A stretch of 56,602 nucleotides of DNA from Acidimicrobiales bacterium (GCA_030043315.1 JASHYA010000322.1:1-56602); one strand, 5' to 3'. Counted from the first letter of the stretch, positions 17,192 to 46,623 are shown. Notes: a model not told the origin generated them from the letters alone. Program-made: numbers and translations.

Positions 17192-17370
17192 CTTGTGCCT
17201 CCAGTCGCCGCGGTGGTCCTGATCAGCACAGGATGCCAGAGCGGCGGCACAGCAGGCTGGGCCGGTGAACGGCGTGAGCAGGTCGAGGAAGCGGCGGCGC
17301 CTTCAGATCGACTTGACGCTGAAACTCCCCGTCGATCACGCTTCACAACGGTGTCGCCCGAGGCCGTGAC

Positions 17371-21400: not shown

Positions 21401-22018
21401 TCAGATCTCCTGTTCGGGGTAGCCGGTCAGGCCGATTCCGAACTCTTGGCCCGCGTCGGCGAGTGCGTCGAACAGGAACTGCCCAGAAGAACGGTCGGAC
21501 ACGATGAGGTAGGACGGGTCTCCATCGACGTCATCGCGCACGACGGTCGAGACGACGGCTGCGACACGGCTCCGGAAGCTGGAGCCGTTCGGCGTGGCGC
21601 GGTCGGACAGGTCGATGGCGCACACCTTCTCGAGGGCCCTTCTGGCGCTCTCTCCGCTGAGACGGAGCACCACGCTCCCATGCGTCACGTCGATGACCGT
21701 CACGAGCGACGTGCAGCCGCGGAGCCGGGAGGCGATCATCTCCGAGACGGCGTCGGACCTCCCGGTGGGCGCGAGGACGAGCCAGCTGTCCGGCCCGGTC
21801 CCGACGATCAGGCTGCCGTCCTCGCGACGGGCACGGAGGTGCTCGCACAACAACGGGGCGACCTCGCCCGGCGCCCCCCGCACGAGCACCTTCGAGAGGG
21901 CGGTCATGTCGGCGAGGCGGAGCGCCGCCTTCGAGTGCGCGCTGCTCACCTCCCATGCGCCCCGCGTTCCCGTCGGTCCGGCGGGTGCGATCGGCGAGCG
22001 TGCGACGGGCTCAGCCAC
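21401..22018 (-). CDS. soxG: sarcosine oxidase-family gamma subunit (SoxG / N-methylglutamate dehydrogenase MgdD type)
   Basis: SoxG-like sequence: ARSPIAP..., LRLADMTALSKVLVRG, VIDVTHGSVVLRLSG. The GTG at 22018 overlaps the soxA end by 8 nt; the alternative start at 22051 would overlap by 41 nt. Confidence 0.75.
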   Translation of the reverse strand: MAEPVARSPIAPAGPTGTRGAWEVSSAHSKAALRLADMTALSKVLVRGAPGEVAPLLCEHLRARREDGSLIVGTGPDSWLVLAPTGRSDAVSEMIASRLRGCTSLVTVIDVTHGSVVLRLSGESARRALEKVCAIDLSDRATPNGSSFRSRVAAVVSTVVRDDVDGDPSYLIVSDRSSGQFLFDALADAGQEFGIGLTGYPEQEI

Positions 22019-24845
22019 GGAGCCGTTCCCCCGCCGGGTCGAAGTGGGCATGCTCCTCCATGACGCGCGCCGTCACCCTCGTCCCGTCCGGCTGCTTGAC
22101 CGTCACCACGGTGCCCGCGTGGGCGAGGTCGGCGGACACGATGCCGAGGCAGATCGAGCGCCCCAGCGTCGGCGAGAAGCGGCTCGAGGTGACCCTCCCC
22201 TCGATCTCGTTGGCGCCGCTCACGATCTGGCTCGCTTCGGGCGGCACGACGGTCGGGTCTGTCGGCTGCAGGCCGACGAGACGGAGCTCGTCTGACCGCT
22301 CCGACTGCCAGACGAGCTCGGGCCTGCCGGCGAAGTCCTCCTTGTCGAGCTTCACGAGCCAGTCGAGGCCAGCCGTGAACGCCTGCGTCAGCCCGTCGGT
22401 GTCCTGGCCGACGATGAAGTGGCCCTTCTCGAGACGCATGATCCGCTGCGCCTCGAGGCCGAAGGGCCCGACCCCGAGGTCTGCTCCGGCCGCCATGAGG
22501 GCCTCCCACACGTACAGGCCAAAGGCGGCCGGCACGTGGACCTCGTAACTCAGCTCCCCCGTGAAGCCGATCCGCCACATGAGGCAGTTGGCGACGCCGG
22601 CGATCGTCCCCTGCCGCACCTGCATGTACTTGAAGGCATCCGGGCCGAGGTCGACGTCGTCGACAAGCCGTCGGAGCAGCTCACGGGAGTTCGGCCCGGC
22701 GACGTTGATCGAGGCGAACGCGCTCGTCATCTCGGTGACATGGACCGACCAATCCGTAAACGTCGTCTGTAGCCAGTTCTCGATCCACTCGTAGATCGCG
22801 CTCGCGCCGGAGCTCGTCGTCGACATGAAGTAGTGGTCGGGACCGAGGTGGCCCGTCACACCATCGTCGGCGACGACCCCGTCCTCGCCGCACATCACTC
22901 CGTAACGGACCGAACCGATGTCGAGCTTCGACCACTTGTTCACATAGAGGAAGTTGAGGAGCCTCGGGACGTCCGGCCCGCGCAGATCCAACTTGCCGAG
23001 CGGCGTGACGTCGATGAGCCCGACGTTCTCGCGGACGTTGCGCACCTCGGAGGCCGGGTCCCCGTAGTGCTCGGGCCGAATCCACTGCCCGGCGACGATG
23101 GGCCGGGCTCGGACCGCCTCGTGCCAGGGCTGCATCGGCGAATAGCGGACTGGCTCGAGGTTGCGGCCGGCGAGCGCCCCCAGGCTGATGGGAACGTGCG
23201 GCGGGCGCCACACGGTGGTGCCCGTCTCGGCGACCGTTCGCCCGGTCGACTCGGCGAGCACCGCGACGGTGTTGATCGTCTCGAGCTTTCCCTGGGACGG
23301 CCCCATCGTCGCCGTCGTGTAACGCTTCACGAGCTCGACCGAGTCGTACCCCTCCTGAGCCGCCGAGACGAGGTCCTTCGACGAGACATCCTCGGACAGG
23401 TCGACGAACCCGTGGGTGCGCGACCTGAAGAGGGCGGGGTGGTCGGCGGGCTCGAGGCGTGGGAGCGCGGTGAGCGGGCCGTGCCCGTCGAGGGTCTCGA
23501 GTGCCCGGCGCGCCGCACGCAGCCCCGTTGCCCTGCCGTGCTCGACGAGGAGATCGACGTCGCCGTCGCCGACGAGACCACCCGTTGCGAAGACGTCCGA
23601 AGGCAGGTCGTCACCCGGCACGAAGCGGGCGGCACGGTCGCAGTAGCGCGGCTTCACGCCGGTCATGTTCACGAGAAGCGTCGGCGCCGTCCACCCGGCC
23701 GCCGTCACGAGGAGGTCGCACTCGACCCGGGCGCCGTCTCCCGTCTCGACTTCCGTCACCCCGCCGCGCCCGCGCGCCCTCAGAAGGGCGCCACCGCGCC
23801 GCGCGTCGACGACGGCCGCCACCTCGGCGCCGGCACGCTCGAGGGCTGCGGCGGCTGCCTCGCCGCTCTGGTTCCCCGTGAAGACGACCGCCCGTTCGCC
23901 TGGGCGGACCGCGTAGAGGTTGACGAGCCGGCTCACCGCGCTCGAGAGCATCACGCCGGGAAGGTCGTTGCCCTCGAAGACGTACGGCCGCTCGATGAGC
24001 CCGACCGCCACGACGACACTTTTCGCACGCGCCTTCACGAGCCGCTCGGTCACGTGCGGCATGCTTCGCTGCAGGACGGCGACCCAGTTGTCGTCGTAGC
24101 GTCCGGTCACCGCCGAGTTCGTCAGCACTTCGATCTGCTCGTGCGCCGCCACCGCCGCGCGCAGCTCCTGCAGTCGTGAGAGCGCGACCTCGTCGCCATA
24201 TCGGAGGTGGCCACCGAGCTCGTGCTCCTCCTCGACCAGCATGACCTCTGCCCCCGCCTCTGCCGCGGCGATTGCTGCGGCCATCCCTGCCGGGCCTCCC
24301 CCGGCGACGAGGACGTCGGGATGGGCGAAACGCTTGTCGTAGTCGCCGTGCGGGGACGATGCCGAGACGCGTCCGCCGGCTGCGAACCGTTGCAGGACGC
24401 GCTCGTACGCCGGCCACAACCGCTGCGGCTTGATGAAGGTCTTGTAGTAGAAGCCGGCACTGAGGAAGGGCCCGACGGCCTGGTTCGCCGCGCCGACGTC
24501 GAAGCGCAGCGAGGGCCAGGAGTGCAGGGCGCGCACGTCCATGCCGGCAGCAACCTGGCGGTGCGACGCGCGGACGTTCGGCTCATCGTCCACCTGCACG
24601 AGGCAACCGGGGTCGTGGAAGGTGGCCGTGAGGATGCCGCGCGGGCGGTGGTACTTGAAGCTGCGGGAGAGGACGCGGTCGCCGGCCGCCGCCAGGGCGC
24701 TCGAGATGGTGTCGCCGTCGTAGGCGGCACGCGAGGCGCCGTTCCAGTAGAAGGTGAGACTCCGAGAGCGGTCGATGACCTCGCCCGGCTGCGGCCCGAT
24801 GCGCCGAGTCGGACCGGCAACCACCCTCCCCCCGATCCGGATCAC
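22011..24845 (-). CDS. soxA: sarcosine oxidase-family alpha subunit (SoxA / MgdC type) with a C-terminal folate-binding GcvT-like domain
   Basis: N-terminus F.WNG....YDGDTISSALAAAG, SFKYHRPRG, NAD/FAD fold DVLVAGGGPAGMAAA, and a C-terminal aminomethyltransferase-like domain. The GTG at 24845 overlaps the soxD stop (GTGA). Confidence 0.9.
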   Translation of the reverse strand: MIRIGGRVVAGPTRRIGPQPGEVIDRSRSLTFYWNGASRAAYDGDTISSALAAAGDRVLSRSFKYHRPRGILTATFHDPGCLVQVDDEPNVRASHRQVAAGMDVRALHSWPSLRFDVGAANQAVGPFLSAGFYYKTFIKPQRLWPAYERVLQRFAAGGRVSASSPHGDYDKRFAHPDVLVAGGGPAGMAAAIAAAEAGAEVMLVEEEHELGGHLRYGDEVALSRLQELRAAVAAHEQIEVLTNSAVTGRYDDNWVAVLQRSMPHVTERLVKARAKSVVVAVGLIERPYVFEGNDLPGVMLSSAVSRLVNLYAVRPGERAVVFTGNQSGEAAAAALERAGAEVAAVVDARRGGALLRARGRGGVTEVETGDGARVECDLLVTAAGWTAPTLLVNMTGVKPRYCDRAARFVPGDDLPSDVFATGGLVGDGDVDLLVEHGRATGLRAARRALETLDGHGPLTALPRLEPADHPALFRSRTHGFVDLSEDVSSKDLVSAAQEGYDSVELVKRYTTATMGPSQGKLETINTVAVLAESTGRTVAETGTTVWRPPHVPISLGALAGRNLEPVRYSPMQPWHEAVRARPIVAGQWIRPEHYGDPASEVRNVRENVGLIDVTPLGKLDLRGPDVPRLLNFLYVNKWSKLDIGSVRYGVMCGEDGVVADDGVTGHLGPDHYFMSTTSSGASAIYEWIENWLQTTFTDWSVHVTEMTSAFASINVAGPNSRELLRRLVDDVDLGPDAFKYMQVRQGTIAGVANCLMWRIGFTGELSYEVHVPAAFGLYVWEALMAAGADLGVGPFGLEAQRIMRLEKGHFIVGQDTDGLTQAFTAGLDWLVKLDKEDFAGRPELVWQSERSDELRLVGLQPTDPTVVPPEASQIVSGANEIEGRVTSSRFSPTLGRSICLGIVSADLAHAGTVVTVKQPDGTRVTARVMEEHAHFDPAGERLRG

Positions 24846-25138
24846 GAGCTCCCGCCCCCCGCCTCCGCACCTGCATTGCTCCTCTCGAAGCGGGGCTTCG
24901 GGCGGGTGGCACGGACCTCGTTCGTGACGGTGTGACGTTCCGCCACGATGAACTTGCCGCAGCCGGCAGCGTGGAACCACTGCTCGGTCGTCCAACCGGC
25001 CGGGTTGGACTTCGAATACAGGTAGGTCCGCCACTCAGTTGGGGACGTGTCCGGGCCCGGCCGCCGCTTCTCCTCGCCGATGTAGCTGAACTCGTCGGAG
25101 TTGCGGGGCCCGCAGTGCGGACACGGGATGCGGATCAT
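24842..25138 (-). CDS. soxD: sarcosine oxidase-family delta subunit (SoxD / MgdB type)
   Basis: MIRIPCPHCGPRNSDEFSYIGE... is the canonical SoxD Zn-ribbon N-terminus. 98 aa. Confidence 0.9.
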   Translation of the reverse strand: MIRIPCPHCGPRNSDEFSYIGEEKRRPGPDTSPTEWRTYLYSKSNPAGWTTEQWFHAAGCGKFIVAERHTVTNEVRATRPKPRFERSNAGAEAGGGSS

Positions 25139-25166
25139 CGCCCCTTCTCCCTCGCCTCGCCCGGCA

Positions 25167-26507
25167 TCAGTGGCCCACCGCGGCCGCGCCGCGCTCACCG
25201 ACGAGAAGCCCGTCACCAAAGCGGGAGAGCCCGAACGAGGAGATGAGCTCCGGGGTCTTGCCCGTCGCGACGAGCTCGGCCATCGCCTCGCCTGCGGCCG
25301 GTCCCGCCTTGAAGCCGTAGGTGCCCCACCCGACGTCGACGAGGAAGCCCTCGACCGGCGTCGTACCCATGATCGGCGAGAAGTCAGGCGTGAGGTCGCA
25401 CAACCCTGCCCACTGCCTGAGGACCCGCATCTTGGCGATCGACGGCATCAGCTCGAGAACATGCGAGGCGAGCTCCTCGGTGAAGGCGAGGGAGCCACGC
25501 ATCGAGTAGGAGGGGTAGGGGTCGGTGCTCGCCCCGAAGACAAGCTCGCCCCGATCGGTCTGGCTGACGTAGACGTGCAGGCTGCCCGACACCACCACGG
25601 CGCCGAGGAACATCCTCACCGGCTCGGTCACGGCTGCCTGCAACGGGTGCGTGATGATCGGAAGCGAGACGCCGGCGAGAGACGAGACGAGCGACGCCCA
25701 TCCGGCGGTGCAGTTGACGACGATCGGAGACGAGATCTCGCCCCGGTTCGTGGTGACGCCGGTCACCTTGCCGTCGACGACGCCGATCGAGAGAACCTCG
25801 GTCCCTTGATGGATGTGGACGCCGAGGGCGTCCGCCGCCCGTGCGTACCCCCAGTTGACGGCGTCGTGCCGGATGATCCCACCGGGTGGGTGGTAGAGCG
25901 CGCCGAGTATCGGGTAGCGGGTGTGGCTCGAGATGTCCATGAACGGGACCAGCCGCTTGACCTCCTCGGGTGCGATCACCTCCGATTCCACCCCTTGCAG
26001 CTTGTTGACCTCGGCACGCCAGCGCATCGTCCGGAGCGACCCGTCGTTGTGGGCGAGCGTGAGGTGACCCCTCTTGGCGAACATCACATTGAAGTTGAGA
26101 TCGGCGGCGAGCGTGCTGTAGAGCGTCATCGACCGGTCGTAGAAGCGGACGCCCTCTGGCGTGAGGTAGTTGGACCGAAGGATCGCCGTGTTGCGTCCCG
26201 ACCCACCTCCACCCACGTAGCCCTTGTCCACGACGGCGACGCGTCGCATGTTGTGGTTGGCTGCCAGGTAGTAGGCGGTGGCGAGGCCGTGGACGCCGGC
26301 CCCGACGATGACCGCGTCGTAGGCGGACGCGACTTCGTGCTCCCTCCACGCCCGCTGCCACTTCTCGTGGGTCAGGCCGTGGCGCAGCAGGCTGAAGGCC
26401 GAGTAGGTCGTCGTCTTGCGCTGACCATCGGAGGCGGCGCCGCGGAGATGAATGAACCGGCGCGCCGCGGGTCGAAGGTCCGATCCCGCTCGTGCGACGC
26501 CCATCAC
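25167..26507 (-). CDS. soxB: sarcosine oxidase-family beta subunit (SoxB / MgdA type), FAD-dependent
   Basis: YSAFSLLRHGL, dinucleotide fold DAVIVGAGVHGLATAYYLA, and GGGGSGRNTAILRSNY (covalent-FMN His region). Confidence 0.9.
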   Translation of the reverse strand: MMGVARAGSDLRPAARRFIHLRGAASDGQRKTTTYSAFSLLRHGLTHEKWQRAWREHEVASAYDAVIVGAGVHGLATAYYLAANHNMRRVAVVDKGYVGGGGSGRNTAILRSNYLTPEGVRFYDRSMTLYSTLAADLNFNVMFAKRGHLTLAHNDGSLRTMRWRAEVNKLQGVESEVIAPEEVKRLVPFMDISSHTRYPILGALYHPPGGIIRHDAVNWGYARAADALGVHIHQGTEVLSIGVVDGKVTGVTTNRGEISSPIVVNCTAGWASLVSSLAGVSLPIITHPLQAAVTEPVRMFLGAVVVSGSLHVYVSQTDRGELVFGASTDPYPSYSMRGSLAFTEELASHVLELMPSIAKMRVLRQWAGLCDLTPDFSPIMGTTPVEGFLVDVGWGTYGFKAGPAAGEAMAELVATGKTPELISSFGLSRFGDGLLVGERGAAAVGH

Positions 26508-26615: not shown

Positions 26616-27212
26616 TCAGCGCCGCGGGCTGCCGTATGCGATGACGGAGAGGAAGCGGATCGGGAGCTCGATGAGGGACGTCGGGCCGTGCACGACCTCG
26701 CCGGCGAACTGGATGGCGTCCCCGGGCGACAACACGTAGCGGTCGGCACCGTAGCCGTACTCGACGACACCGTGAAGCACGTAGATGAACTCGATGCCCG
26801 GGTGCTGGAACAGCGGGAAAACCTCGCTGTGCTCGTTCAGTTCCACGAGCATCGGCTCCATCACCTTGTTCGGGCCGCGCATCTCGCCCAGCAGCTGGTA
26901 GTGGTGGCCGACGCGGGTGCCCTTGCGGACGATCTCGATGCCCTGGCCGGCGCGGATCACAAGCGCGTCGTGCTCCTCGTCGAGGCCCCGGAACAGTGAG
27001 GTGAGCGGTACCGAGATCGCGGCCGCGAGCTTGACGAGGGTGCCGAGGCTTGGCGAGGCCTGCGCGTTCTCGATCTTCGAGAGCATCCCCTTGGAGATGC
27101 CCGACCGCTCCGCGAGCTGCTCAACGGTGAGGCCGAGCTGGTTCCGATACTCACGCACCCGCTGTGCAATCACCCAGCCGACGCCGGAATCGAGCGCGTC
27201 AGCGCTCGTCAC
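26616..27212 (-). CDS. XRE-family HTH transcriptional regulator with a C-terminal cupin domain
   Basis: HTH reads IAQRVREYRNQLGLTVEQLAERSGISKGMLSKIENAQ. Cupin reads HPGIEFIYVLHGVVEY...PGDAIQF. The GTG at 27212 was chosen; ORF 26616..27878 is over-extended and the start is uncertain. Confidence 0.75.
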   Translation of the reverse strand: MTSADALDSGVGWVIAQRVREYRNQLGLTVEQLAERSGISKGMLSKIENAQASPSLGTLVKLAAAISVPLTSLFRGLDEEHDALVIRAGQGIEIVRKGTRVGHHYQLLGEMRGPNKVMEPMLVELNEHSEVFPLFQHPGIEFIYVLHGVVEYGYGADRYVLSPGDAIQFAGEVVHGPTSLIELPIRFLSVIAYGSPRR

Positions 27213-27282
27213 AGCCGGGCCGGGTGGTCTGGCGCGGCTGGCTCGGTTCCCGCGGTCGGGAAGAGCCAGCGGCGGACGGTCG

Positions 27283-27296
27283 GCGTTGGCCAACGC
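27283..27296. promoter_or_regulatory. perfect 14-bp palindrome GCGTTGGCCAACGC, candidate operator
   Basis: Located in the divergent region between the XRE-cupin regulator and the GcvT-like gene. Confidence 0.3.
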
Positions 27297-27455: not shown

Positions 27456-28580
27456 GTGAGCATCGACACCGCGTTTCGTCCTCGCTTCGACGAGCTCACC
27501 GATCGGTGGATCGACCTGTTCGGGTACTCGGCGCCGGCCGTGGTGACCGATACGCTCGAGGAGTACCGAGCAGTTCGTCAACGGGCCGGGCTGATGGACT
27601 TCTCGATGTTGCGCAAGGTCGACGTGACCGGCACGGGGGCGGTCGCGTTGCTGAACCGCATTCTCACTCGCGACCTGAGGAAGGTACGGGTGGGTCGCAT
27701 CGCGTACGGGGCGATCTGTGACGAGGACGGCAAGATGGTCGACGACTGCACGGCGTCCATCTACTCTCCCGACCACGTCCGCTTCTGCGGAGCAAACGAC
27801 CGCGACGCGGAGATCTTCTCGACGAGGATCGGCTCTGAGTCGGTGAGGATCCAAGTATTCACCGACGCCATGCCGCACCTCTGCGTGCAGGGACCGCGCA
27901 GCCGCGACATCTTGCAGGCGCTGACCGACTCCGACCTCAGCGGGGAGACCTTCCCCTACTACACCTTCCGAGACGGTGTCGAGATCTCCGGCATCCCCGT
28001 CTTCATGACGCGACTCGGGTACACCGCAGAGCTCGGCTACGAGGTGTGGGTCGAGCGCGGTCGGGCTCTCGAGTTATGGGACGTTCTCTTCAAGGCCGGG
28101 AAGGACTTCGGCATGGCCGTCATCGGCATGGACGCCCTCGACCTGCTCAGGATCGAAGGCGGCTTCGTCATTGGTGGCGTCGAATACGACCCCTCCGTCT
28201 CGCCGTTCGAGTGCGGGCTCGGATGGGCGATCGACTTTGACAAAGGTGACTTTCTTGGCCGGAGCCGCCTACTCGAGGACCGTGACACCACCGAGCTCCG
28301 CCTCACGAGCGTCGTGCTCGACGACGCCGGACCTGCCGCCAGCGGCGCCGTCCTCACCGTCGTCGGCGAGGACGAGCCCGCCGGGGTCGTGACCCAGGCG
28401 GTGAGCTCTCCTTACCTCGGAGGGCGGACGCTCGGTCTCGCCAAGCTCCGCAAGCCCCACCATGTGGCCGGGACGCCGATCACCGCAGCCGTCGAGGGAC
28501 GTGAAGTGCGGGGTGAAGTCGTCTCCCACCCGGTCTACGACCCCAAGCGCACGCGGGCGAAGGAGACTGCTCGAGCCTGA
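27456..28580 (+). CDS. aminomethyltransferase-family (GcvT-like) folate-binding protein
   Basis: EEYRAVRQRAGLMDFSMLRKVDVTG, LCVQGPRSRDIL, TRLGYTAELGYEVWV. GTG start preceded by GCAGGAGGCAGAC. Confidence 0.85.
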   Translation: MSIDTAFRPRFDELTDRWIDLFGYSAPAVVTDTLEEYRAVRQRAGLMDFSMLRKVDVTGTGAVALLNRILTRDLRKVRVGRIAYGAICDEDGKMVDDCTASIYSPDHVRFCGANDRDAEIFSTRIGSESVRIQVFTDAMPHLCVQGPRSRDILQALTDSDLSGETFPYYTFRDGVEISGIPVFMTRLGYTAELGYEVWVERGRALELWDVLFKAGKDFGMAVIGMDALDLLRIEGGFVIGGVEYDPSVSPFECGLGWAIDFDKGDFLGRSRLLEDRDTTELRLTSVVLDDAGPAASGAVLTVVGEDEPAGVVTQAVSSPYLGGRTLGLAKLRKPHHVAGTPITAAVEGREVRGEVVSHPVYDPKRTRAKETARA

Positions 28581-28603
28581 AGGACGCGCGCCGGGCTTCG
28601 GAG

Positions 28604-28894
28604 CTAGGCGGGTGTCGCGCTCTTCAGGTGGTTCTTCCCACGGCCCGCGCCGAGGCGTCGCAGCGGCGAGAGGTACCAGGTGACCCCGACCGCCGTGGCG
28701 CCGACAGCGCCCCACAGGTTCGGGTACGGGTGACCGTAGAGCAGGCCGGCGACGATTCCGTAGGTAGCGGCCACGGCAATCATGCCCGGCGAGCGCAGGA
28801 AGATGGCGCTGACACCACGGAGCCCTCGCCCAGCGCTGATCGTGAGCACGGCGGACGCGCCTTGCGGATGGTCCGCGTCGATCCGCTCGCTCAC
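28604..28894 (-). CDS. small hypothetical membrane protein (about 2 TM)
   Basis: 96 aa with the hydrophobic stretches MIAVAATYGIVAGLLYG and LWGAVGATAVGVTWYL. The GTG start overlaps the stop of the upstream GcvT-like gene (GTGA). Confidence 0.4.
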   Translation of the reverse strand: MSERIDADHPQGASAVLTISAGRGLRGVSAIFLRSPGMIAVAATYGIVAGLLYGHPYPNLWGAVGATAVGVTWYLSPLRRLGAGRGKNHLKSATPA

Positions 28895-30027
28895 GACTTC
28901 GGCCGAGTCTTCTCGGGGTCGTAGAAGGGCACGCGCGCGACGCTCGCGCGGATCGGCTCCCCGCCTTCAGACCGAGAGACGGTCAACTGCGGTCCCTGGG
29001 TGTGTGCCACCTCGACGCGGGCGAAGCCGATGGGGCAGCCGCAGTAGGGCGAGGAGATCGCGCTCGTGATGACGCCCACCGGCTCCGACCCGGCCAGAAC
29101 GGCGTCCCCGTTCGCGGGTACGTCGTCTCCCTCGAGCACGAGTCCGATGAAGGCCTGCTTCGGTTCGGTGCGGCGCCGGTTAAGCGCCTCCTTGCCGACG
29201 TACGGGTCGGCCTTCGAGCGCGTCACCGTGAAGCCGATCCCTGCCTCGAAAGGGTCTTCTGACCCTTCGTACTCGTAGCCCTTGAAGATGAGACCCGCCT
29301 CCACGCGGACGACGTCGAGTGCGTCGAGACCGAGTGGCGCGAGGCCGTACGGCTCCCCCGCGGCCCAGATCCGGTCGAAGACGTCTCCCCCGTCCTCGGG
29401 GCGGCACCACACCTCGTACCCGAGCTCTCCCGAGTAGCCGGTCCGAGAGACGAGCACGTCGGGACCGCCGGAGGACCCGAGGCGGCCTTCGGTGAACGTG
29501 AACCACGTGAGCTCGGACACGCGCCGGGCACCTTCGTTCGGCACCACCATCGACGACAGGATGTCCCTGCTGGCGGGACCCTGCACCGCCAGGTTGTGGA
29601 GCCGGTCCGTCGAGTTCTCGAGCGAGACGTCGAGCCCGTTTCGCCTTGCGATCCCCGCGAGCCACGCCTCGTCCTCGTCGGTGTAGCCGATCCAGCGGAA
29701 GCGCTCCGGCCCGAAGCGGAAGATCGTGCCGTCGTCGACGACCTGGCCCTCCTCGTCACAGAGGGCGGTGTAGACGACGTCGCCGTCCTTGAGGCGCTTC
29801 ACGTCCCGAGTGGCGGCCGCCTGCAGGACGGCTTCGGAGCCGGGACCCGACACCTCGACCTTGCGGAGGGGCGTGAGGTCGATGACGATCGCCCGCTCCC
29901 TGCACGCCCGGTACTCCTCGAGGATGTCGGCCGCGTACTGGGAGGGGAAGTCGTAGTCGGCGTATTCCACGAACGTCGCGCCGAGGGCGGCGGTGCGGTC
30001 GTAGAAGCCGCTTCTCTTCAGTGCCAC
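28891..30027 (-). CDS. aminomethyltransferase-family (GcvT-like) folate-binding protein, second paralogue
   Basis: EEYRACRERAIVIDLTPLRKVEVSG, LAVQGPASRDIL, SRTGYSGELGYEVWC. GTG start with a GAAAGGA SD. Confidence 0.85.
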   Translation of the reverse strand: MALKRSGFYDRTAALGATFVEYADYDFPSQYAADILEEYRACRERAIVIDLTPLRKVEVSGPGSEAVLQAAATRDVKRLKDGDVVYTALCDEEGQVVDDGTIFRFGPERFRWIGYTDEDEAWLAGIARRNGLDVSLENSTDRLHNLAVQGPASRDILSSMVVPNEGARRVSELTWFTFTEGRLGSSGGPDVLVSRTGYSGELGYEVWCRPEDGGDVFDRIWAAGEPYGLAPLGLDALDVVRVEAGLIFKGYEYEGSEDPFEAGIGFTVTRSKADPYVGKEALNRRRTEPKQAFIGLVLEGDDVPANGDAVLAGSEPVGVITSAISSPYCGCPIGFARVEVAHTQGPQLTVSRSEGGEPIRASVARVPFYDPEKTRPKS

Positions 30028-30075
30028 AGGATCGTCCTTTCCGGGCGTGACGTGTCGTCCACCGAGCGGCGGACG

Positions 30076-31413
30076 TCAGCTCCAGGGGTATGGCGAGTGG
30101 CTGACCGGGTGGAGCCGGCCCTCGGCGTAGCGGGAGAACCGGAACGGCTCGAGCAACGGCTGACTCTCTCCGAGGAGCTCGCGGGCGACCAGCGCTCCGA
30201 CGCCGATCATCTTGTAGCCGTGGTTCGAGTCGGCGATCACGTACGCGTTCTCCGAGAACGTGTCGAAGACGGGGAAGCTGTCCGGCGTGAAGCAGCCGAG
30301 CCCGCCGGACGACTCCTTCTTGAAGTTGGGCCGCTTTCCCTCGAAGCGCTTGTGGCAGTGAGCGAGCGCCGAGGTCCACAGCCGGATGAAGTCCTCCCCG
30401 AGGGCGTAGTCCTCGCTCGCGGGCCCGTACGGGTCGACGTTCACCTGTTCGGCCGGTTTGTCGACGACATACGGCACGCCGCCACCCTGCACGCCACCGA
30501 AGTAGAGGTCGGGCTTGTAGTAGATGCCCCACAGCTGGTCCGTGACGAGCGAGCCGTCCATGTCGTCGATGAGCGGCGCGTCCGTGTCGACGTGGAGGAC
30601 GGGGGGCATCTCACCCGAGTCGGTGAGGAAGTAGTCCGGCGGGACCTCGACGGTCCCTTCTTGCAGGCACCAGTAGGTCCACATCGGCCGGCGGTAGAGC
30701 TGCCCGTCGCGACCTTTCACGTCGACGTCCTCGGACAGCCCGAGCATCTCCCAGAAGTCGCGCACCCACGGCCCGACGGCGACCACGACCTGGTCGCACG
30801 AGATCGGCCCGGTCTTCGTCTCTACCGCGGTGACCGCTCCCCCGCTCGTCGTGAACCCGGTCACCCGGACGCCCTCGAAGATCTCGACACCCGCGTTGCG
30901 CGCCTTGCGCTCGAGCCCGCGGAGAGATCCGACGTTGTTGGCGTAGCCGCCACGCTTTTCGTGAAGGACGACCGAGATGTTGCCGGCTTGCCAGTCCGAG
31001 AACATCGACCGCATGTAGCTCGTGCAGTCGTCTGGGCCTTCGATCAGGACGGACTCGTAGCCGATCGCACGCTGTTCCTCGTGGATCTTGGCCACGTCGG
31101 CGGCCATGACGTCGGGCGCGATCTGCATATAACCGACAGGGTTGTACGAGAAGGCGACCGGGTCCGACTCCCACACCGACACGGAATGCGCCATCAGCTC
31201 GCGCATCGCCGGTTGGAAGTAGTTGTTGCGGACGACTCCGCAGGCGATGCCCGTCGCGCCCGCCCCGACCCCGTTCTTGTCGACGACGATGACGTCGCCC
31301 CGCTTGAACGGTCCGGTTCGTCCGAGCCGTTCCGCGAGATGCCACGCCGTCGACAGTCCGTGGATTCCGCCTCCTATGACGACGTAGCGGGCTGACCTCG
31401 GTACCTCAGACAT
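30076..31413 (-). CDS. FAD-dependent oxidoreductase (DAO / SoxB-like amine oxidase-dehydrogenase family)
   Basis: Dinucleotide fold YVVIGGGIHGLSTAWHLA, and GATGIACGVVRNNY like SoxB. 445 aa. ATG with a GGGAGG SD. Confidence 0.8.
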   Translation of the reverse strand: MSEVPRSARYVVIGGGIHGLSTAWHLAERLGRTGPFKRGDVIVVDKNGVGAGATGIACGVVRNNYFQPAMRELMAHSVSVWESDPVAFSYNPVGYMQIAPDVMAADVAKIHEEQRAIGYESVLIEGPDDCTSYMRSMFSDWQAGNISVVLHEKRGGYANNVGSLRGLERKARNAGVEIFEGVRVTGFTTSGGAVTAVETKTGPISCDQVVVAVGPWVRDFWEMLGLSEDVDVKGRDGQLYRRPMWTYWCLQEGTVEVPPDYFLTDSGEMPPVLHVDTDAPLIDDMDGSLVTDQLWGIYYKPDLYFGGVQGGGVPYVVDKPAEQVNVDPYGPASEDYALGEDFIRLWTSALAHCHKRFEGKRPNFKKESSGGLGCFTPDSFPVFDTFSENAYVIADSNHGYKMIGVGALVARELLGESQPLLEPFRFSRYAEGRLHPVSHSPYPWS

Positions 31414-31452
31414 CTGTTGCGACCTCCCGTGAGGGACTCCCCCTCGTCTCGA

Positions 31453-31878
31453 TCAGTGTCCGCCAGCGGGCTCCCAGCCCGAAAGCGCCGGCGGCTCCCA
31501 GTGGCTCCCGACGACCTCGCTGTCCGCCGTCCACGGGCCGAGCGCCCGTTGCGGAAACTTGGCGTGCTTGCGCTTCAGCTGGATCCCGTACGAGTTGCCG
31601 GCCTGCAGGTGTGCGATGAGCACCTTGCGTGCGACCTCGTCCTCGCGCCCTTCGGGAATCGGAAAATGGATCTTGAGAAAGGAGTTCGAGTACCGGTCGA
31701 AGACGGCTGGCACGCCGTCCTCCGTGAGGAGGTGGACGTCCTCCAGCCAGTTGAGATCAGGTCCGGGCGTGGCAGCGACGAGGTCGATGTCCTCGACGAG
31801 GGAGATGTCGTGCTGGTAGGGATACGAGCGCCCGGCGAGCTCCTCTGCGTCGATGGTGACGTGGCGGGACTTGGCCAT
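31453..31878 (-). CDS. hypothetical protein (141 aa), translationally coupled to mgsC
   Basis: MAKSRHVTIDAEELAGRSYPYQHD...; I recognise no family. The ATG shares one base with the mgsC TGA (TGATG). ORF 31453..32334 is an out-of-context extension. Confidence 0.5.
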   Translation of the reverse strand: MAKSRHVTIDAEELAGRSYPYQHDISLVEDIDLVAATPGPDLNWLEDVHLLTEDGVPAVFDRYSNSFLKIHFPIPEGREDEVARKVLIAHLQAGNSYGIQLKRKHAKFPQRALGPWTADSEVVGSHWEPPALSGWEPAGGH

Positions 31879-33272
31879 CAGAGCTCCCCTTCGGTCGGAT
31901 TCTTCGAGAGGAGCCTGCGCATCTCGGCGAGCAGGTTCGCCTCGGTGACGCCGGGGATGTAGTCGGTGCCGGCCAGGGGCACCTTCGCCATCGCCGCCGC
32001 CTCGACCGTGAGCGCGCAGAGGTCCTCCGGCTCGAGGCTGTGGACGTTCGTCTTGCCGCACGCTCGGGCGAGCATCTGCACCTCGAGGGTCAGGGTGTGC
32101 AAGAAGTTGTAGACACGCTCGGCGGCTTCGTCGACGACGAGCCGCTTGCGCAGCTCGGGATCCTGCGTCGTGATCCCGACGGGACAGCGACCAGTGTGAC
32201 AGTGGTAGCAGTAGCCGGCCGGGACGCCGATCGTCCCCTCGTAGTCGGTCACGCCGGGGATCTCTTTGTTGCAATTGAGCGCCATCAGCGCCGAGTGGCC
32301 GATGGCGATAGCCGTCGCGCCCAGTGCGAGGCACTTGGCGACGTCGCCGCCGTTGCGGATGCCGCCGGCCACGACGAGGTCGATCTCATCGGCGAGGCCG
32401 ACGTCCTCGAGGGCCCTGCGCGCCTCGGGGATGGCGGCCATGAGCGGGATGCCCGTCTCCTCGGCCGCGATGTGCGGCCCCGCTCCCGTGCCGCCTTCGG
32501 CGCCGTCGAGATAGATGATGTCCGGGCCGCACTTGGCCGCCATGCGGACGTCGTCGTAGACGCGAGCCGCACCGAGCTTCAGCTGGATCGGGATCTGGTA
32601 GTCGGTCGCCTCCCGCACCTCCTGGATCTTCAAGGAGAGGTCGTCCGGGCCGAGCCAGTCGGGATGACGGGCGGGGCTGCGCTGGTCGATCCCGACCGGG
32701 AGCGAGCGCATCTCGGCCACCTGCTCGGTCACCTTCTGGCCCATGAGGTGGCCGCCGAGGCCGACCTTGCACCCCTGGCCGATGAAGAACTCGCACGCAT
32801 CGGCCAGCATGAGGTGGTGCGGGTTGAAGCCGTACCGGCTCTGGATGCACTGGTAGTACCACTTCGTCGAGAAGTCGCGCTCGGGTGGGATCATCCCTCC
32901 CTCGCCCGAGCACGTCGCCGTCCCTGCCATCGACGCTCCCTTGGCGAGTGCCATCTTCGCTTCGAGCGAGAGGGCGCCGAAGCTCATCCCGGTGATGTAG
33001 ATGGGGATGTCGAGCCGGATCGGGTTCTTGGCGAAGCGAGCGCCGAGCACGGTCTTCGTGAGGCATTTCTCGCGGTACCCCTCGATCACGAACCGGGTGA
33101 GGGTTCCCGGCAGGAACATGAGCTCGTCCCAGCTGGGCATCTTCTTGAAGAGCGAGAAGCCGCGCATGCGGTATCGGCCGAGCTCGGATTTGATGTGTAT
33201 GTCGTTGATCACCTCGGGGGTGAAGATCCTCGAGTGCCCGAGGATGCTGCGCTCCGATGTCTGTTCCTCCAC
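31878..33272 (-). CDS. mgsC: N-methylglutamate synthase subunit C (glutamate synthase FMN-domain protein)
   Basis: GltB domain-2 motifs: ITGMSFGALS, GEGGM, QGCKVGLGGHL, DGAEGGTGAGP, VVAGGIRNGGDV. GTG start with an AGGAGG SD. Confidence 0.85.
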   Translation of the reverse strand: MEEQTSERSILGHSRIFTPEVINDIHIKSELGRYRMRGFSLFKKMPSWDELMFLPGTLTRFVIEGYREKCLTKTVLGARFAKNPIRLDIPIYITGMSFGALSLEAKMALAKGASMAGTATCSGEGGMIPPERDFSTKWYYQCIQSRYGFNPHHLMLADACEFFIGQGCKVGLGGHLMGQKVTEQVAEMRSLPVGIDQRSPARHPDWLGPDDLSLKIQEVREATDYQIPIQLKLGAARVYDDVRMAAKCGPDIIYLDGAEGGTGAGPHIAAEETGIPLMAAIPEARRALEDVGLADEIDLVVAGGIRNGGDVAKCLALGATAIAIGHSALMALNCNKEIPGVTDYEGTIGVPAGYCYHCHTGRCPVGITTQDPELRKRLVVDEAAERVYNFLHTLTLEVQMLARACGKTNVHSLEPEDLCALTVEAAAMAKVPLAGTDYIPGVTEANLLAEMRRLLSKNPTEGEL

Positions 33273-33281
33273 ACCTGCCTC

Positions 33282-34073
33282 CTAGAGGACGAGCTTGCGC
33301 TCGTTCGGCTCGAGCGAGTCGTAGTTCCACAGCTTCCGCCCACACTCGAACTTGCGGAAGCTTCCGGGGTGCTCGATCCCGTAGGCCGTGAGCTTCCCTT
33401 TCAGCATCTCCTCGTCGGTGTCGGTCAACTCGGCTTCCACGCAGTCGACGCCGAGCGACTCGACCTTGCCGGCGACGTAGATGGCGCCGTCGTACATCGA
33501 GTCGCCGAGCCCCGGACCGACGTTCCCGCAGATGATCTGGCGCCCCCGCTGCATCATGAAGCCGGTCATCAGCCCGGCGTTCCCCCCGACGATGATGGTG
33601 CCGCCCTTCTGGTCGATGCCGGTTCGGGCCCCGACGTCGCCGCGCACGACAAGATCGCCGCCTCGAAGTGCTGCACCGGCGAGCGATCCTGCGTTCTTGT
33701 CGATGACGACGACACCCGCCATCATGTTCTCGGCGACGGACCAGCCGACACGACCGGCCACCTCGGCTTCCGGCCCGTCGATCAGCCCGAGCCCGAAGTA
33801 GCCGAGGCTGCCCTCGAAGCGCAGCCTGCACCGTTCGAGGATGGCCACCCCGATCGAGTGCTTGGCGCCGGGGTTGAGGACCGTGATGTCCCTCACGCCC
33901 TGGTCCACGAGCAGCCAGCGGATCTCGAGATTGACGCGTCTCGTCGAGTAGCCGGTCGCGTCGAAGACGGCGCGACCGTCCTCGATCTTCGACGTCTTGG
34001 GAGCCTCGGCGTCGGGCTCGACGAGCCCGCGGGCGTCGTAGCGGATCCTGCGCTCTCCTACTACCTGTGCCAC
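33282..34073 (-). CDS. mgsB: N-methylglutamate synthase subunit B (GXGXG-motif glutamate synthase domain)
   Basis: Beta-helix repeats: GSLGYFGLG, AGRVGWSV, VRGDVGARTG, VGGNAGLMTG, CGNVGPGLG. Confidence 0.85.
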   Translation of the reverse strand: MAQVVGERRIRYDARGLVEPDAEAPKTSKIEDGRAVFDATGYSTRRVNLEIRWLLVDQGVRDITVLNPGAKHSIGVAILERCRLRFEGSLGYFGLGLIDGPEAEVAGRVGWSVAENMMAGVVVIDKNAGSLAGAALRGGDLVVRGDVGARTGIDQKGGTIIVGGNAGLMTGFMMQRGRQIICGNVGPGLGDSMYDGAIYVAGKVESLGVDCVEAELTDTDEEMLKGKLTAYGIEHPGSFRKFECGRKLWNYDSLEPNERKLVL

Positions 34074-34993
34074 ACGAGCACCTCCCCCTCGTACGGGTCG
34101 TGCGTATCGATCTCGTGGTCGATGACGGCCCTGATGGCGACTTCTTCGGAGGCGAGCGCCACGAGGTCCTCGCCTTCGTAGAGGACGAGCGGCTTCGCGG
34201 CCATCACGTCCTTTGCGACGCCGAGCTCGTCGCGGGTCACGACGACGTAGGTGAAGACGCCGTCGAAGTCATCGAGGCTCTCTTTGATGGCCGTCTCTAG
34301 CGGTACGGCGTGGTTCAACTTCTCGGCGAGGTAGACGGCGATGATCTCGGAGTCGCACTCGGACTGGAAGCGGTGGCCGAGTCGCTCGAGCCGACGGCGC
34401 CACTGGTGGTAGTTGGTCAACTGGCCGTTGTGGACGACAGCGACGTCGCCGAAGGGGTAGGCCCAGTACGGGTGGGCGCCGGCGATGTCGACATCGGACT
34501 CGGTTGCCATGCGGACGTGCCCGATGGCATGGGTTCCCGTGAAGTGGTCGAGCCCGTACTGCGCCGCGACGGAGACGGCGTCGCCGAGGTCCTTGACGAT
34601 CTCGAGCGAGTGCCCGACCGAGAGCACCTCTGCCCCCGAGATCGCCTCGACGTAGTCGACGAGCGACTTCAGGTCGCCCTCGTAGTCGATGACGGCACGG
34701 TAGGCGTAGTCCGTGACGCCTTCGAAGCGATCGATGCGGGCGCCCACCTTCCCGAGCCGAGCCTCCAGCTCGGCACGGCGCTGCTCGATCAGCTCGCTGA
34801 ACTCGATCGTGCGGGCGGCGTTCGGGTCCGCGAGCTTGATGCGCAACACCAGCTCCTCCGACGGCGCGCTGTACAGGGCGAAGCCGGTCGAGTCTGGACC
34901 CCGGTGCTTCATGGACTGAAGCATCCGCGTCATCTCCGACCCGACGTCAGCGACCGCGCCCCCCTTGTGGATGATGCCGGCGATGCCGCACAC
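34061..34993 (-). CDS. mgsA: N-methylglutamate synthase subunit A (class II glutamine amidotransferase domain)
   Basis: GTG-Cys start (V)CGIAGII, the Ntn nucleophile, with MKHRGPDSTG. An AAAGGAGAG SD lies directly after the gmaS stop. Confidence 0.85.
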   Translation of the reverse strand: MCGIAGIIHKGGAVADVGSEMTRMLQSMKHRGPDSTGFALYSAPSEELVLRIKLADPNAARTIEFSELIEQRRAELEARLGKVGARIDRFEGVTDYAYRAVIDYEGDLKSLVDYVEAISGAEVLSVGHSLEIVKDLGDAVSVAAQYGLDHFTGTHAIGHVRMATESDVDIAGAHPYWAYPFGDVAVVHNGQLTNYHQWRRRLERLGHRFQSECDSEIIAVYLAEKLNHAVPLETAIKESLDDFDGVFTYVVVTRDELGVAKDVMAAKPLVLYEGEDLVALASEEVAIRAVIDHEIDTHDPYEGEVLVWHR

Positions 34994-35007: not shown

Positions 35008-36402
35008 TCAGGGAAGGATGTCGAGGTATTCCTTGATATCCCAGTCGCTCACCGTGCCGATGAAGCGCTCCCACTCGTCGGTCTTGTAGTGCATGAAGAC
35101 CCGGTACATGTCCCCGGTGAGTGCGGACCTGACGACCTCGTCCTTTTCGAGCTCGACGAGCGCCTCTCCCAGGGTGCTCGGGATCCTCCGCACCTTCTTG
35201 CCAGCTGCCATCGCCTCGTAGATGTTCCCCTCCTCCGGCTCACCGGGGTCGATGCTGCGGTCGAGGCCGTCCTTCATCACCGCCAAGAGGGCAGCGAAGG
35301 AGAGATACGGGTTCACCGCCGAGTCGACCGAGCGGTACTCGAAGCGCCCGGGCGCCGAGATCCGCAGCGCCGTCGTGCGGTTCTGAAAGCCCCAATCGGC
35401 GAAGATCGGAGCCCAGAAACCCGCATCGGCGAAGCGTCGGTACGAGTTCACGGTTGGCGAGGTGATCGCACAGAGTGCCCGCAGGTGCTCCATCACCCCG
35501 CCGATCGCGTGCAGGCCGATCTTGCCGGGAAGGCGCGGGTTGTCGGTGTCGGGAAGGAACATGTTCTCGTCGCCCTGCCAGAGCGAGATGTTGTGATGAC
35601 AGCCGTTCGCCGAGACGCCCATGAAGGGCTTCGGCATGAAGCAGGCGAAGGCGTCCATCTCGCGGCCGACCTGCCGGCAGATCTGGCGGTAGGTCGTGAG
35701 CCGGTCGGCGGTGAGCTCGGCCTTGTCGAACTGGAAGTTCAGCTCGAGCTGGCCGGGGGCGTCCTCGTGGTCGCCCTGGATCATGTCGAGGCCCATCTTC
35801 TGGCCGTACTCGATCACCTTGTGGATGATCGGCTGCAGCTCGGAGAACTGGTCGATGTGGTAGCAGTAGGGCTTCGTCTTGCCCTCGACCGAGGGCTTGC
35901 CGTCGGCGTCGGTCTTCAGCCACATCATCTCCGGCTCACATCCCACGCGGAGGTGGAGTCCCGTGGCGGCGGTGAACGCGTCGTGCGCACGCTTCAGGTT
36001 GCCTCGGCAGTCGGAGGTGAGGAAGGCGCCTCCGTCGACCTCTTCCTCACGTCCGCGAAAGAGCGTACAGAAGACGCGGGCCACCTTGCGGTCCCACGGG
36101 AGCACACAGAAGGTCTCCGGCTCGGGCATGCCGATGAGCTCGCGAGCCTCCGGGCCGTACCCGATGTAGTCGCCGTTCCGGTCGATGAAGAGGTTCGCCG
36201 TCGAGCCGTAGACCAGCTGGAAGCCGCGTCGGGCGATGTTCTCCCAGTGGGGCGAGGGAATCCCCTTGCCCATGATGCGGCCCGTCACCGAGACGAACTG
36301 GTAGTAGATGTACGTGACCCCCTCCGCCTTGATCTGGCGGCTGACCTCGGAGATCAGATCGTCCCTTCCTTCTTGGGCTACGAAGGTCTCCAAATCGGAC
36401 AT
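35008..36402 (-). CDS. gmaS: gamma-glutamylmethylamide synthetase (glutamine synthetase-like)
   Basis: GS catalytic-domain motifs: CEPEMMW, HEDAPGQLELNF, MPKPF...NGCHHNISLW, NSYRR. Adjacent to mgsABC. The ATG at 36402 has a GGGAGGG SD. Confidence 0.8.
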   Translation of the reverse strand: MSDLETFVAQEGRDDLISEVSRQIKAEGVTYIYYQFVSVTGRIMGKGIPSPHWENIARRGFQLVYGSTANLFIDRNGDYIGYGPEARELIGMPEPETFCVLPWDRKVARVFCTLFRGREEEVDGGAFLTSDCRGNLKRAHDAFTAATGLHLRVGCEPEMMWLKTDADGKPSVEGKTKPYCYHIDQFSELQPIIHKVIEYGQKMGLDMIQGDHEDAPGQLELNFQFDKAELTADRLTTYRQICRQVGREMDAFACFMPKPFMGVSANGCHHNISLWQGDENMFLPDTDNPRLPGKIGLHAIGGVMEHLRALCAITSPTVNSYRRFADAGFWAPIFADWGFQNRTTALRISAPGRFEYRSVDSAVNPYLSFAALLAVMKDGLDRSIDPGEPEEGNIYEAMAAGKKVRRIPSTLGEALVELEKDEVVRSALTGDMYRVFMHYKTDEWERFIGTVSDWDIKEYLDILP

Positions 36403-36874: not shown

Positions 36875-37347
36875 GCCTCCAGGTCGAGGTGCGCACGGAA
36901 GCGCCCGGACTCGCGTCCAGCGCTGGTTCCGGCGACGTCCTTCTCGCCACCTTCGGCGTCCCCTTCGACGCCGAAGCAGCGGCGTTCGCCGTCGACTCGG
37001 CCGTCGAGGCCGGTCGCAACCTCATCGTCGCCAACGTCGTCGAGCTCGAGCCCCTCCCCCTCAGCCTCCGGATGGGTTACGACAGCCTCGAGTACACACC
37101 GGAGCTGGCGGCCTCCCTCCTCGCGCCGGTGCAGCTGGCCCAATCCCTCGGGGTGCACGTCGAGCGGCTTCGCGTGAAGACGCCCCGGCGCGTGCGCTCC
37201 CTCATCGAGCTCGTGAAGGAGCGCCAGGTGAGCCTGCTCGTGCTCGGGCCCGACCGCAACGTGGTGAAGCCCCGCCTCTACCGAAAGGCCGCGGCCGCGG
37301 TCCGGGGCCGCCTCTCCTGCCTCGTCTGGCTCAGCTGGGACCTATAG
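36871..37347 (+). CDS. hypothetical protein, possibly USP-like fold
   Basis: The ATG overlaps the upstream stop (ATGA). LIVANVVELEP...LIELVKERQVSLLVLGP is reminiscent of universal stress / adenine-nucleotide alpha-hydrolase folds. Confidence 0.45.
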   Translation: MSLQVEVRTEAPGLASSAGSGDVLLATFGVPFDAEAAAFAVDSAVEAGRNLIVANVVELEPLPLSLRMGYDSLEYTPELAASLLAPVQLAQSLGVHVERLRVKTPRRVRSLIELVKERQVSLLVLGPDRNVVKPRLYRKAAAAVRGRLSCLVWLSWDL

Positions 37348-39781: not shown

Positions 39782-40028
39782 GTCACCCTCCCCTTGCTGG
39801 AACCGCGCTGGCACTCCGTGCGGGCGACAGACTCCCCATCCCGGCCCCCTGCAGCCAGCCGCTCGTGTTCACTGTTGCGAAACTGTGTCCACTGCGGATA
39901 ACTTCGTCGGCATAGTAGTCCACGCCGGGGGAAATGTGAAGGGACTCTTTGGGCCCCGTTTCCTCCCCGGGGTTGTGGCCTATCTTGCACGCCATGGCGA
40001 CGGTACAAGCCCGGAGGGGACACCAGAG

Positions 40029-41743: not shown

Positions 41744-41746
41744 GGG

Positions 41747-46607: not shown

Positions 46608-46623
46608 GAGGCTCCCCCCCGAC

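Follow-up and report, generated by a model that had tools for sequence, protein, structure and literature searches.

A conserved 141-residue protein beside a predicted actinobacterial N-methylglutamate synthase and a putative alternative, folate-coupled N-methylglutamate dehydrogenase

This analysis concerns a 56,602-nucleotide stretch of DNA from an Acidimicrobiales bacterium (GCA_030043315.1, JASHYA010000322.1:1-56602; about 68% GC), referred to below as the window. It focuses on the genes between positions 27,456 and 31,878: two stand-alone GcvT-like folate proteins (GcvT374 and GcvT378), a flavoprotein of the DAO family (DAO445) and a conserved protein of 141 residues (p141). The protein p141 belongs with the type-A N-methylglutamate synthase MgsABC encoded next to it, and not with the flavoprotein and folate genes. 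DAO445 and GcvT378 are tentatively interpreted, with confidence somewhat short of an even call, as an alternative, folate-coupled N-methylglutamate dehydrogenase in a self-contained actinobacterial N-methylglutamate pathway. A broader proposal is possible and is held with less confidence: an Actinomycetota variant of that pathway in which the fold-novel p141 would be an obligatory fourth synthase subunit, a SoxB-like dehydrogenase with a single flavin adenine dinucleotide (FAD) would replace the four-subunit N-methylglutamate dehydrogenase MgdABCD, and a tetrahydrofolate (THF) protein and a membrane anchor would be optional. Gene structure, family and fold assignments and synteny statistics are observed here; substrates and protein–protein contacts are proposed throughout.

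The module in question forms the distal half of an operon-like unit of eight minus-strand genes (gmaS, mgsA, mgsB, mgsC, p141, DAO445, GcvT378 and a small membrane open reading frame, ORF), which their arrangement suggests are transcribed together. Gaps between them do not exceed 48 nt, two junctions overlap (TGATG and GTGA), the mgsB start overlaps the end of mgsA by 13 nt, and no terminator-like site was found on the minus strand inside the unit. Start codons, which have Shine-Dalgarno sequences ahead of them, were picked by these and by homologue lengths, and the higher coordinate of each gene listed below is its start. The gmaS gene begins with ATG after GGGAGG, giving 464 residues as in its homologues, while mgsA begins with GTG after AAGGAG, giving 310 residues (309 in homologues). 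Domain scans confirmed the ORF coordinates of the original prediction (27456..28580, 28891..30027, 30076..31413 and the 141-residue ORF). That prediction had also rightly described the FAD protein and the GcvT-like protein as separate adjacent genes, and the 141-residue ORF as coupled to mgsC, whose stop its ATG overlaps. The gap between the FAD and GcvT-like genes measures 48 nt. It had missed the eighth gene, which encodes 96 residues from a GTG start, with two hydrophobic segments. The genes of the unit are as follows.

35008..36402, minus strand: gmaS, type A, predicted gamma-glutamyl-amine ligase resembling glutamine synthetase (GS); Gln-synt_C 1.1e-87; first gene of the operon
34061..34993, minus strand: mgsA, class-II amidotransferase subunit; GATase_6/7
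33282..34073, minus strand: mgsB, GXGXG subunit; GXGXG 1.1e-12
31878..33272, minus strand: mgsC, type A, glutamate-synthase-like flavin mononucleotide (FMN) subunit; Glu_synthase 1.9e-91
31453..31878, minus strand: p141, conserved 141-residue protein; TGATG overlap with mgsC
30076..31413, minus strand: DAO445, FAD flavoprotein resembling sarcosine oxidase beta; DAO 2.8e-35
28891..30027, minus strand: GcvT378, stand-alone THF-binding protein; GCV_T 9.4e-67 plus GCV_T_C
28604..28894, minus strand: small two-helix membrane protein; GTGA overlap with GcvT378; last gene of the operon

The position of p141 across genomes decides its assignment. Of the 73 loci that have upstream sequence, 72 carry p141 immediately after mgsC, often with overlapping start and stop codons. 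It is also kept where no DAO445 gene is nearby, namely in locus L005, Pseudonocardia sp. C8 and P. asaccharolytica. One case without DAO445 is a 1.17-Mb contig on which the operon stops after p141, and in the two cultured Pseudonocardia species mgdDCBA is divergent from gmaS-mgsABC-p141-permease-regulator. Because p141 follows mgsC with or without the flavoprotein, it is assigned to the type-A synthase, and the earlier view that it forms part of the FAD/GcvT module is not borne out. It is absent after type-B mgsC (three loci) and from Paracoccus, and no other protein of the cluster is as conserved as type-A MgsC and p141. A direct contact between p141 and MgsC may underlie this linkage.

The original description of p141 as a protein of no recognisable family stands. 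It had no Pfam match even at E<10 and no NCBIfam, PHROG or PDB sequence match. Its AlphaFold2 (AF2) model, with a predicted local distance difference test score (pLDDT) of 83.8 and a predicted template-modelling score (pTM) of 0.75, found no Foldseek match in the PDB or BFVD (best E 0.39 and 0.14, respectively; template-modelling score, TM, below 0.3). It matches 6469 database clusters at the 90% identity level and 190 at 50%, almost all of them at least 70% identical to the query, and since these 6469 clusters match at about 70–89% identity, p141 is not a chance ORF. It is encoded in at least 512 GTDB species-level genomes. All of the 80 loci that match best belong to Actinomycetota (Acidimicrobiia, Thermoleophilia and Actinomycetes), except for one Limnocylindria bin, and no homologue was found in the plasmid collection. 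Five sequences that seemed to join p141 to MgsC or to flavoproteins were rejected as frameshifted, wrong-frame translations of high-GC DNA. Distant relatives, at 34–38% identity, with lysine-rich N-termini and the p141 motif DLNWLEDVH..E.G.PAVFDR.N, occur in DNA of 31% GC: at 7932-8342 on the plus strand of L093, a viral-collection contig with an endolysin-like gene, and on three contigs too short to classify (L002–L004). Searches of PHROGs and BFVD gave nothing for these phage-borne relatives either.

The synthase itself has the architecture of MgsABC, that is, three subunits (a class-II GATase, a GXGXG protein and an FMN Glu_synthase) beside a GS-like ligase. Type-A MgsC is 81–93% identical across Actinomycetota loci (86–93% in all but one) and shares 54–56% identity with type-B and Paracoccus MgsC, for which the mutual figure is 65.5%; the protein of the mgsABC-gmaS cluster on Paracoccus aminophilus pAMI6 is among those compared, at 54%. 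It carries a C-terminal extension of about 20–35 residues that is missing in other MgsC. In some genomes (L074, L077, L086–L089) two mgsABC sets stand side by side, type A with p141 and type B without it; in L086, genes for a Usp and a molybdopterin oxidoreductase and a second GS-like gene come after the type-B set. A cysteine motif of MgsC, CxxCxxxxCP (window positions 32170-32200, CYHCHTGRCP), is shared by L005 and by the two MgsC types of L086, and it is likely to be an Fe-S site. Its cysteines are replaced in Pseudonocardia type-A MgsC and in Paracoccus MgsC (L094, L092), so an Fe-S cluster would not be a constant feature of MgsC.

The flavoprotein DAO445 can be aligned in sequence only over residues 1 to about 230, with SoxB, the P. 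horikoshii proline dehydrogenase beta subunit, DMGDH and L-amino acid deaminase; its identity to SoxB/MgdA proteins is 27–28% over the N-terminal half. It scores 78.8 bits with TIGR01373 (residues 11-223) against a cut-off of 529.45, which places it outside the SoxB/MgdA family. The AF2 model (pLDDT 84.3, pTM 0.87) resembles TSOX beta best in Foldseek (TM 0.71/0.79), followed by MSOX, PDH1 beta, DMGO, DMGDH and MTOX. It matches 1pj5, 4p9s, 4pab and 5l46 with E values of 1e-23 to 1e-22 and TMq of 0.63-0.69, which is the fold of DMGDH, SARDH and DMGO. These nearest folds all belong to oxidases or dehydrogenases of N-alkyl amino acids. The column of 2gag_B His173, the residue that carries covalent FMN in SoxB, is an invariant Asn160 in DAO445. 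In the profile alignment with human DMGDH (5l46_A), the flavinylated histidine, in the motif S-T-W-H-A-A-G, corresponds to Ile56; both covalent-flavin histidines are therefore missing. Arg62 is invariant, lies in an R-x-x-Y motif and probably corresponds to Arg52 of MSOX, which binds the substrate carboxylate. The eight-gene operon contains no SoxD or SoxG gene, and no fused DAO-GcvT homologue occurs among the loci examined.

The genomic company of DAO445 suggests which step it may catalyze. A census of possible N-methylglutamate oxidisers was taken at the 46 loci whose sequence extends 8 kb or more to either side of p141, using flanks of 8-10 kb rather than whole genomes. A DAO445-like gene is present in 34 of them; 23 loci have only a DAO445-like candidate, 6 only Sox/Mgd genes, 11 both and 6 neither. 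Such an either/or/both distribution would fit two non-orthologous enzymes serving a single step, the oxidation of N-methylglutamate that closes the pathway. The DAO445-like gene is the very next gene after p141 in 27 of the 73 loci. On two complete Acidimicrobiales chromosomes the operon consists of exactly gmaS-mgsABC-p141-DAO445, with unrelated genes on both sides and no match to trimethylamine dehydrogenase (TMADH), electron-transfer flavoprotein (ETF) or Sox/Mgd within 10 kb either side of these six-gene operons. Locus L091 has the whole window cassette without Sox/Mgd genes within 10 kb. Some DAO445 homologues bear the JGI label 'methylglutamate dehydrogenase subunit A', an automatic annotation and as such weak evidence.

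Other features of these flavoprotein loci were also recorded. In four Solirubrobacterales loci p141 is followed by two tandem DAO445 paralogues (51–55% and 37–40% identical to DAO445), which hints at a heteromeric flavoenzyme. In locus L090 a Peptidase_C26 gene (a PuuD-like gamma-glutamyl hydrolase) and a glyoxalase-fold gene lie between p141 and DAO445 (8804-9954), with a flavin reductase after them, and a Peptidase_C26 gene is also found near the cluster of P. asaccharolytica. A 447-residue protein labelled 'NAD(P)/FAD oxidoreductase', encoded close to the mgs cluster of Paracoccus, was considered and is not a relative of DAO445.

GcvT378 is a member of the stand-alone THF couplers that resemble the C-terminal part of Tdm and DmmD, as judged by its profile matches and conserved contacts. 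It scores 476.6 bits with positions 386-762 of NF053776 (Tdm equivalog cut-off 1100), 357 bits with residues 409-787 of PDB 9q5a, the THF domain of a trimethylamine N-oxide demethylase, and 124 bits with 1pj5. The THF contacts of Paracoccus Tdm are R480, F582, F672 and K782 (PMC13619132), and all four are identical in GcvT378, as expected of a Tdm-type THF domain. In Tdm this domain captures channelled formaldehyde as methylene-THF (PMC13619132), and DmmD is a stand-alone GcvT-like partner of dimethylamine monooxygenase (PMC5520151). Neither window paralogue is a full Tdm, as both match only model positions 385-762 (476.6 bits for GcvT378, 264.5 for GcvT374), and neither is a gcvT equivalog (TIGR00528, cut-off 235.85 bits; 188.7 and 181.3, respectively). 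Among the roughly 45 candidate window ORFs that were scanned, a subset of all window ORFs, no gcvH, gcvP or DUF1989 was found. Adjacent DAO and GcvT genes occur in at least seven independent genomes. The proposal that these two genes look like split FAD and folate halves of DMGO/DMGDH, or of SoxB plus SoxA, is supported by Foldseek TM values of 0.64-0.72, by the 357-bit Tdm match and by the operon-like arrangement. Homologues of the small membrane ORF follow the GcvT gene in three further loci and share the motif WWWPG...YPNLWG...WY.SP.R.

From these observations a four-step pathway can be proposed. The GS-like ligase, by its family and context, would make gamma-glutamylmethylamide from methylamine, and type-A MgsABC would turn this product into N-methylglutamate. 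The protein p141 would act as an obligatory accessory subunit of the type-A synthase, most likely bound to MgsC, which in type A has an extra C-terminal helix. The single-FAD DAO445 would then oxidise the N-methyl group of N-methylglutamate, regenerating glutamate, with ETF as its probable electron acceptor. Finally, GcvT378 would take up the iminium or formaldehyde and yield 5,10-methylene-THF, by analogy with Tdm, DmmD, DMGO and SoxA, while the two-helix protein may tether the DAO445-GcvT378 pair to the membrane. On this reading, DAO445 would serve the same function as the four-subunit MgdABCD encoded alongside.

Several points weigh against this pathway. In the window itself, the MgdABCD-like cluster described below would make DAO445 unnecessary for N-methylglutamate oxidation, and at the loci scored as DAO445-only on their flanks Mgd may lie elsewhere in the genome. 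No characterised protein aligns with the substrate domain of DAO445 (residues ~232-370). Of about 18 loci with DAO445 orthologues, about 7 also have GcvT378, and these are all the loci most closely related to the window; consequently, folate coupling is not obligatory, and the DAO445-GcvT378 pairing is real but lineage-restricted. The type-A ligase is 30% identical to Paracoccus GmaS and about equally near ordinary GS; its best PDB match, 9qur 'glutamate--methylamine ligase', reaches 216.7 bits, barely more than ordinary GS. Because of this distance from GmaS, the identification of methylamine as the amine is itself inferred from context. A search for RNA-seq data bearing on co-transcription gave no usable run, the window sequence being present only in DNA metagenomes from peat and soil.

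DAO445 might instead be an auxiliary clean-up or side-branch enzyme whose substrate is a different N-alkyl or secondary amino acid; sarcosine, N-methylalanine, a proline-like compound and a by-product of a promiscuous type-A ligase or synthase are examples. This would agree with a substrate domain unlike that of any characterised enzyme, with a type-A ligase that is no clear GmaS orthologue and with variable neighbours, for example the Peptidase_C26, glyoxalase and flavin reductase genes of L090 and the tandem DAO paralogues of Solirubrobacterales. Such a role is nevertheless unlikely, given the tight, lineage-wide linkage of DAO445 to gmaS-mgsABC-p141 (34 of 46 loci) and its frequent place as the very next gene (27 of 73); moreover, no alternative substrate-specific genes travel with it.

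Dimethylamine (DMA) is a somewhat less likely substrate still. In this case DAO445 and GcvT378 would form a DMA dehydrogenase or oxidase that releases methylamine and passes the methyl carbon to THF, bridging TMADH and GmaS, and the operon logic would fit equally well, as the product feeds GmaS. The window encodes a TMADH homologue (44403..46610, minus strand; 889 bits to PDB 1djn) that retains Cys30 and the trimethylamine-type residues Tyr60, Ser74 and Trp105, which TMADH engineering studies link to substrate preference. ETF beta/alpha and an EtfD-like membrane CCG/4Fe-4S protein are encoded with it (39624-43873, plus strand), and together these would provide a complete electron route to the quinone pool. 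The original prediction that the island lacks a DMA-to-methylamine enzyme holds in that no DmmABC or DMADH-type enzyme was seen, which leaves the DMA step without an assigned enzyme; it is weakened by the TMADH homologue and by a PhyH-type dioxygenase. However reasonable the premise, it does not follow that the DAO module fills the gap. DAO445-like genes do adjoin TMADH-ETF operons in four loci, but DAO445 is missing from three of the seven TMADH-linked loci, and the compact six-gene operons have no TMADH, ETF or Sox/Mgd match in their surroundings. All close structural relatives of DAO445 use carboxylate-bearing N-alkyl amino acids, and the invariant Arg62, which probably aligns with the carboxylate-binding Arg52 of MSOX, would point the same way. 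A DMA substrate would also leave the 23 DAO445-only loci without an N-methylglutamate oxidiser nearby, and the PhyH-type dioxygenase, found elsewhere beside Tdm or GcvT-like genes, is an alternative candidate for the DMA step. N-methylglutamate is therefore preferred over the DMA originally suggested, as DAO445 tracks gmaS-mgsABC, is the sole oxidiser candidate in 23 of 46 loci and has an amino-acid-oxidase fold.

It is quite improbable that p141 serves DAO445 as a subunit or assembly factor, in the manner of SoxD or SoxG in the heterotetrameric oxidase. Such a role would agree with its position between mgsC and DAO445 in the window, with a DAO445-like gene nearby in 74% of loci and with the small extra subunits of heterotetrameric sarcosine oxidases. 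It is opposed by the equal conservation of p141 where DAO445 is missing within 10 kb, including the two cultured Pseudonocardia species, which use MgdABCD, and by its start/stop coupling to mgsC rather than to DAO445. In addition, the p141 fold is unlike SoxD, SoxG or any PDB chain, and p141 lacks the cysteines for a SoxD-type zinc site. Its interpretation as a GltB central-domain relic or a SoxD/SoxG analogue was rejected in the same way, as Foldseek gave no PDB match although those structures are in the library.

Three further features lie immediately beyond the operon.

27456..28580, plus strand: GcvT374, second THF-binding paralogue; GCV_T 3.9e-59 plus GCV_T_C
26616..27293, minus strand: XRE-HTH plus cupin regulator of PuuR-like architecture; HTH_3 2.4e-16, Cupin_2 1.7e-10
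21401..26507, minus strand: SoxB-SoxD-SoxA-SoxG type cluster, MgdABCD-like; genomic context of the module rather than part of it

The GcvT374 gene converges on the operon and diverges from the regulator. Its product shares 36% identity with GcvT378 and scores 188 bits with the Tdm THF domain, retaining the THF contacts in conservative versions (R/Y/W/R); it matches that domain, GcvT and SoxA best. Orthologues with 61–66% identity close TMADH-ETFbeta-ETFalpha-EtfD operons in six loci, in Gaiellales and relatives. Since its orthologues end such operons, GcvT374 is probably the folate-capture partner of the TMADH of the island, separate from the DAO445 module; we know of no prior description of a dedicated folate-capture partner for TMADH. 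The original alternative, direct methyl transfer from a methylated substrate by a DmdA-like enzyme, is very improbable, for although GcvT374 shares the GcvT superfamily with DmdA, it reaches 120.3 bits with the DmdA equivalog NF009133 (142.8 for the other paralogue) against a cut-off of 410, has its nearest relatives elsewhere, and has orthologues whose operon position points to the capture of TMADH-derived formaldehyde. By extension of the variant-pathway proposal, stand-alone GcvT-like proteins could be general formaldehyde-to-THF couplers for unrelated amine dehydrogenases, TMADH included.

The complete SoxB/D/A/G cluster lies just beyond the regulator, and its bit scores (soxB 494.7, soxD 87.2, soxA 850.2, soxG 63.9) all fall below the sarcosine-oxidase cut-offs. 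Over its full length, the SoxB-like protein of this cluster shares 43% identity with a SoxB-family protein of Paracoccus aminophilus pAMI6, whose gene adjoins folD/purU about 8.6 kb from the mgsABC-gmaS genes of that plasmid. The cluster is thus a candidate for conventional MgdABCD. The regulator scores 6.2e-12 with the PuuR model, below the cut-off; its start is uncertain (27293 or 27212), and it occupies an equivalent position in five other loci.

Upstream of gmaS the methylated-amine island continues with a PhyH-type dioxygenase, an amino-acid permease, ETF beta/alpha and the EtfD-like membrane Fe-S protein. The PhyH-type Fe/2-oxoglutarate dioxygenase (37342-38262, minus strand) adjoins the permease. 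Its relatives adjoin GcvT-like genes or full-length Tdm in five loci, with a gap of 3 nt to full-length Tdm in L090, and it is a candidate oxidative N-demethylase for the DMA step. On the other side, positions 15605-18516 encode a fused cysteine-dioxygenase/rhodanese protein, a Fae homologue and an alcohol dehydrogenase resembling the class-III/mycothiol-type formaldehyde dehydrogenase, all scoring below their own equivalog cut-offs; the Fae-like and formaldehyde-dehydrogenase-like genes, at 16.6–18.5 kb, lie beside the island. At the left end of the window (574-3611), LigD (phosphoesterase plus ligase) and Ku form a non-homologous end-joining pair unrelated to the island.

Methylated amines serve as major sources of carbon and nitrogen, and climate-relevant gases arise from them. 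To our knowledge, the catabolic genes gmaS, mgs, mgd, tdm and dmm, used as environmental markers, have been defined almost entirely in Proteobacteria, and the methylamine pathway of Actinomycetota in soil and peat may be misjudged by surveys based on them. The p141-linked type-A cluster is present in at least 512 Actinomycetota species-level genomes, the nearest of which are mostly uncultured metagenome-assembled genomes (MAGs), and N-methylglutamate oxidation in this phylum may rest on a simpler, non-orthologous enzyme. We know of no study of p141, although it is a conserved component of the actinobacterial N-methylglutamate synthase; its presence in cultured Pseudonocardia opens these ideas to direct testing.

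Compared with known systems, what is new is above all the highly conserved p141 family, uncharacterised and without a fold match, followed by the pairing of a DAO flavoprotein with GcvT378 and a membrane ORF and by the likely replacement of MgdABCD by DAO445. In DMGO, DMGDH and SARDH, a DAO-type FAD domain and a GcvT-like THF domain are joined in one polypeptide, and the oxidised N-methyl group becomes methylene-THF; DAO445 superposes on their FAD halves (TM ~0.64–0.69), and GcvT378 aligns to their folate halves (124 bits, 1pj5). Unlike these enzymes, the present system consists of two genes, lacks the covalent FAD histidine and has similarity confined to the FAD-binding part; GcvT378 is also nearer Tdm than DMGO, and the GcvT partner gene is missing in many genomes. 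SoxBDAG and MgdABCD share with it the TSOX beta fold as the best match of DAO445, the position beside gmaS-mgsABC and GcvT-like folate capture. They differ in that DAO445 is only 27–28% identical in the N-terminal half, lacks the FMN His173 and has no SoxD/SoxG equivalents, while a genuine four-subunit cluster is separately encoded in the window.

Tdm and DmmD offer the closest parallel for GcvT378, which is nearest the Tdm THF domain, keeps its THF contacts and stands alone like DmmD (PMC5520151, PMC13619132). In the DmmD system, too, a GcvT-like protein is encoded with a formaldehyde-releasing, amine-demethylating enzyme (PMC5520151, PMC13619132). By contrast, the present system has no DUF1989 domain or DmmABC genes; its partner is a DAO flavoprotein, and it is coupled to a small membrane protein. 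Finally, proteobacterial MgsABC-GmaS has the same three-subunit architecture and gene order, with MgsC 54% identical, whereas type A is a separate lineage with an MgsC extension, a ligase 30% identical to GmaS and p141 always present.

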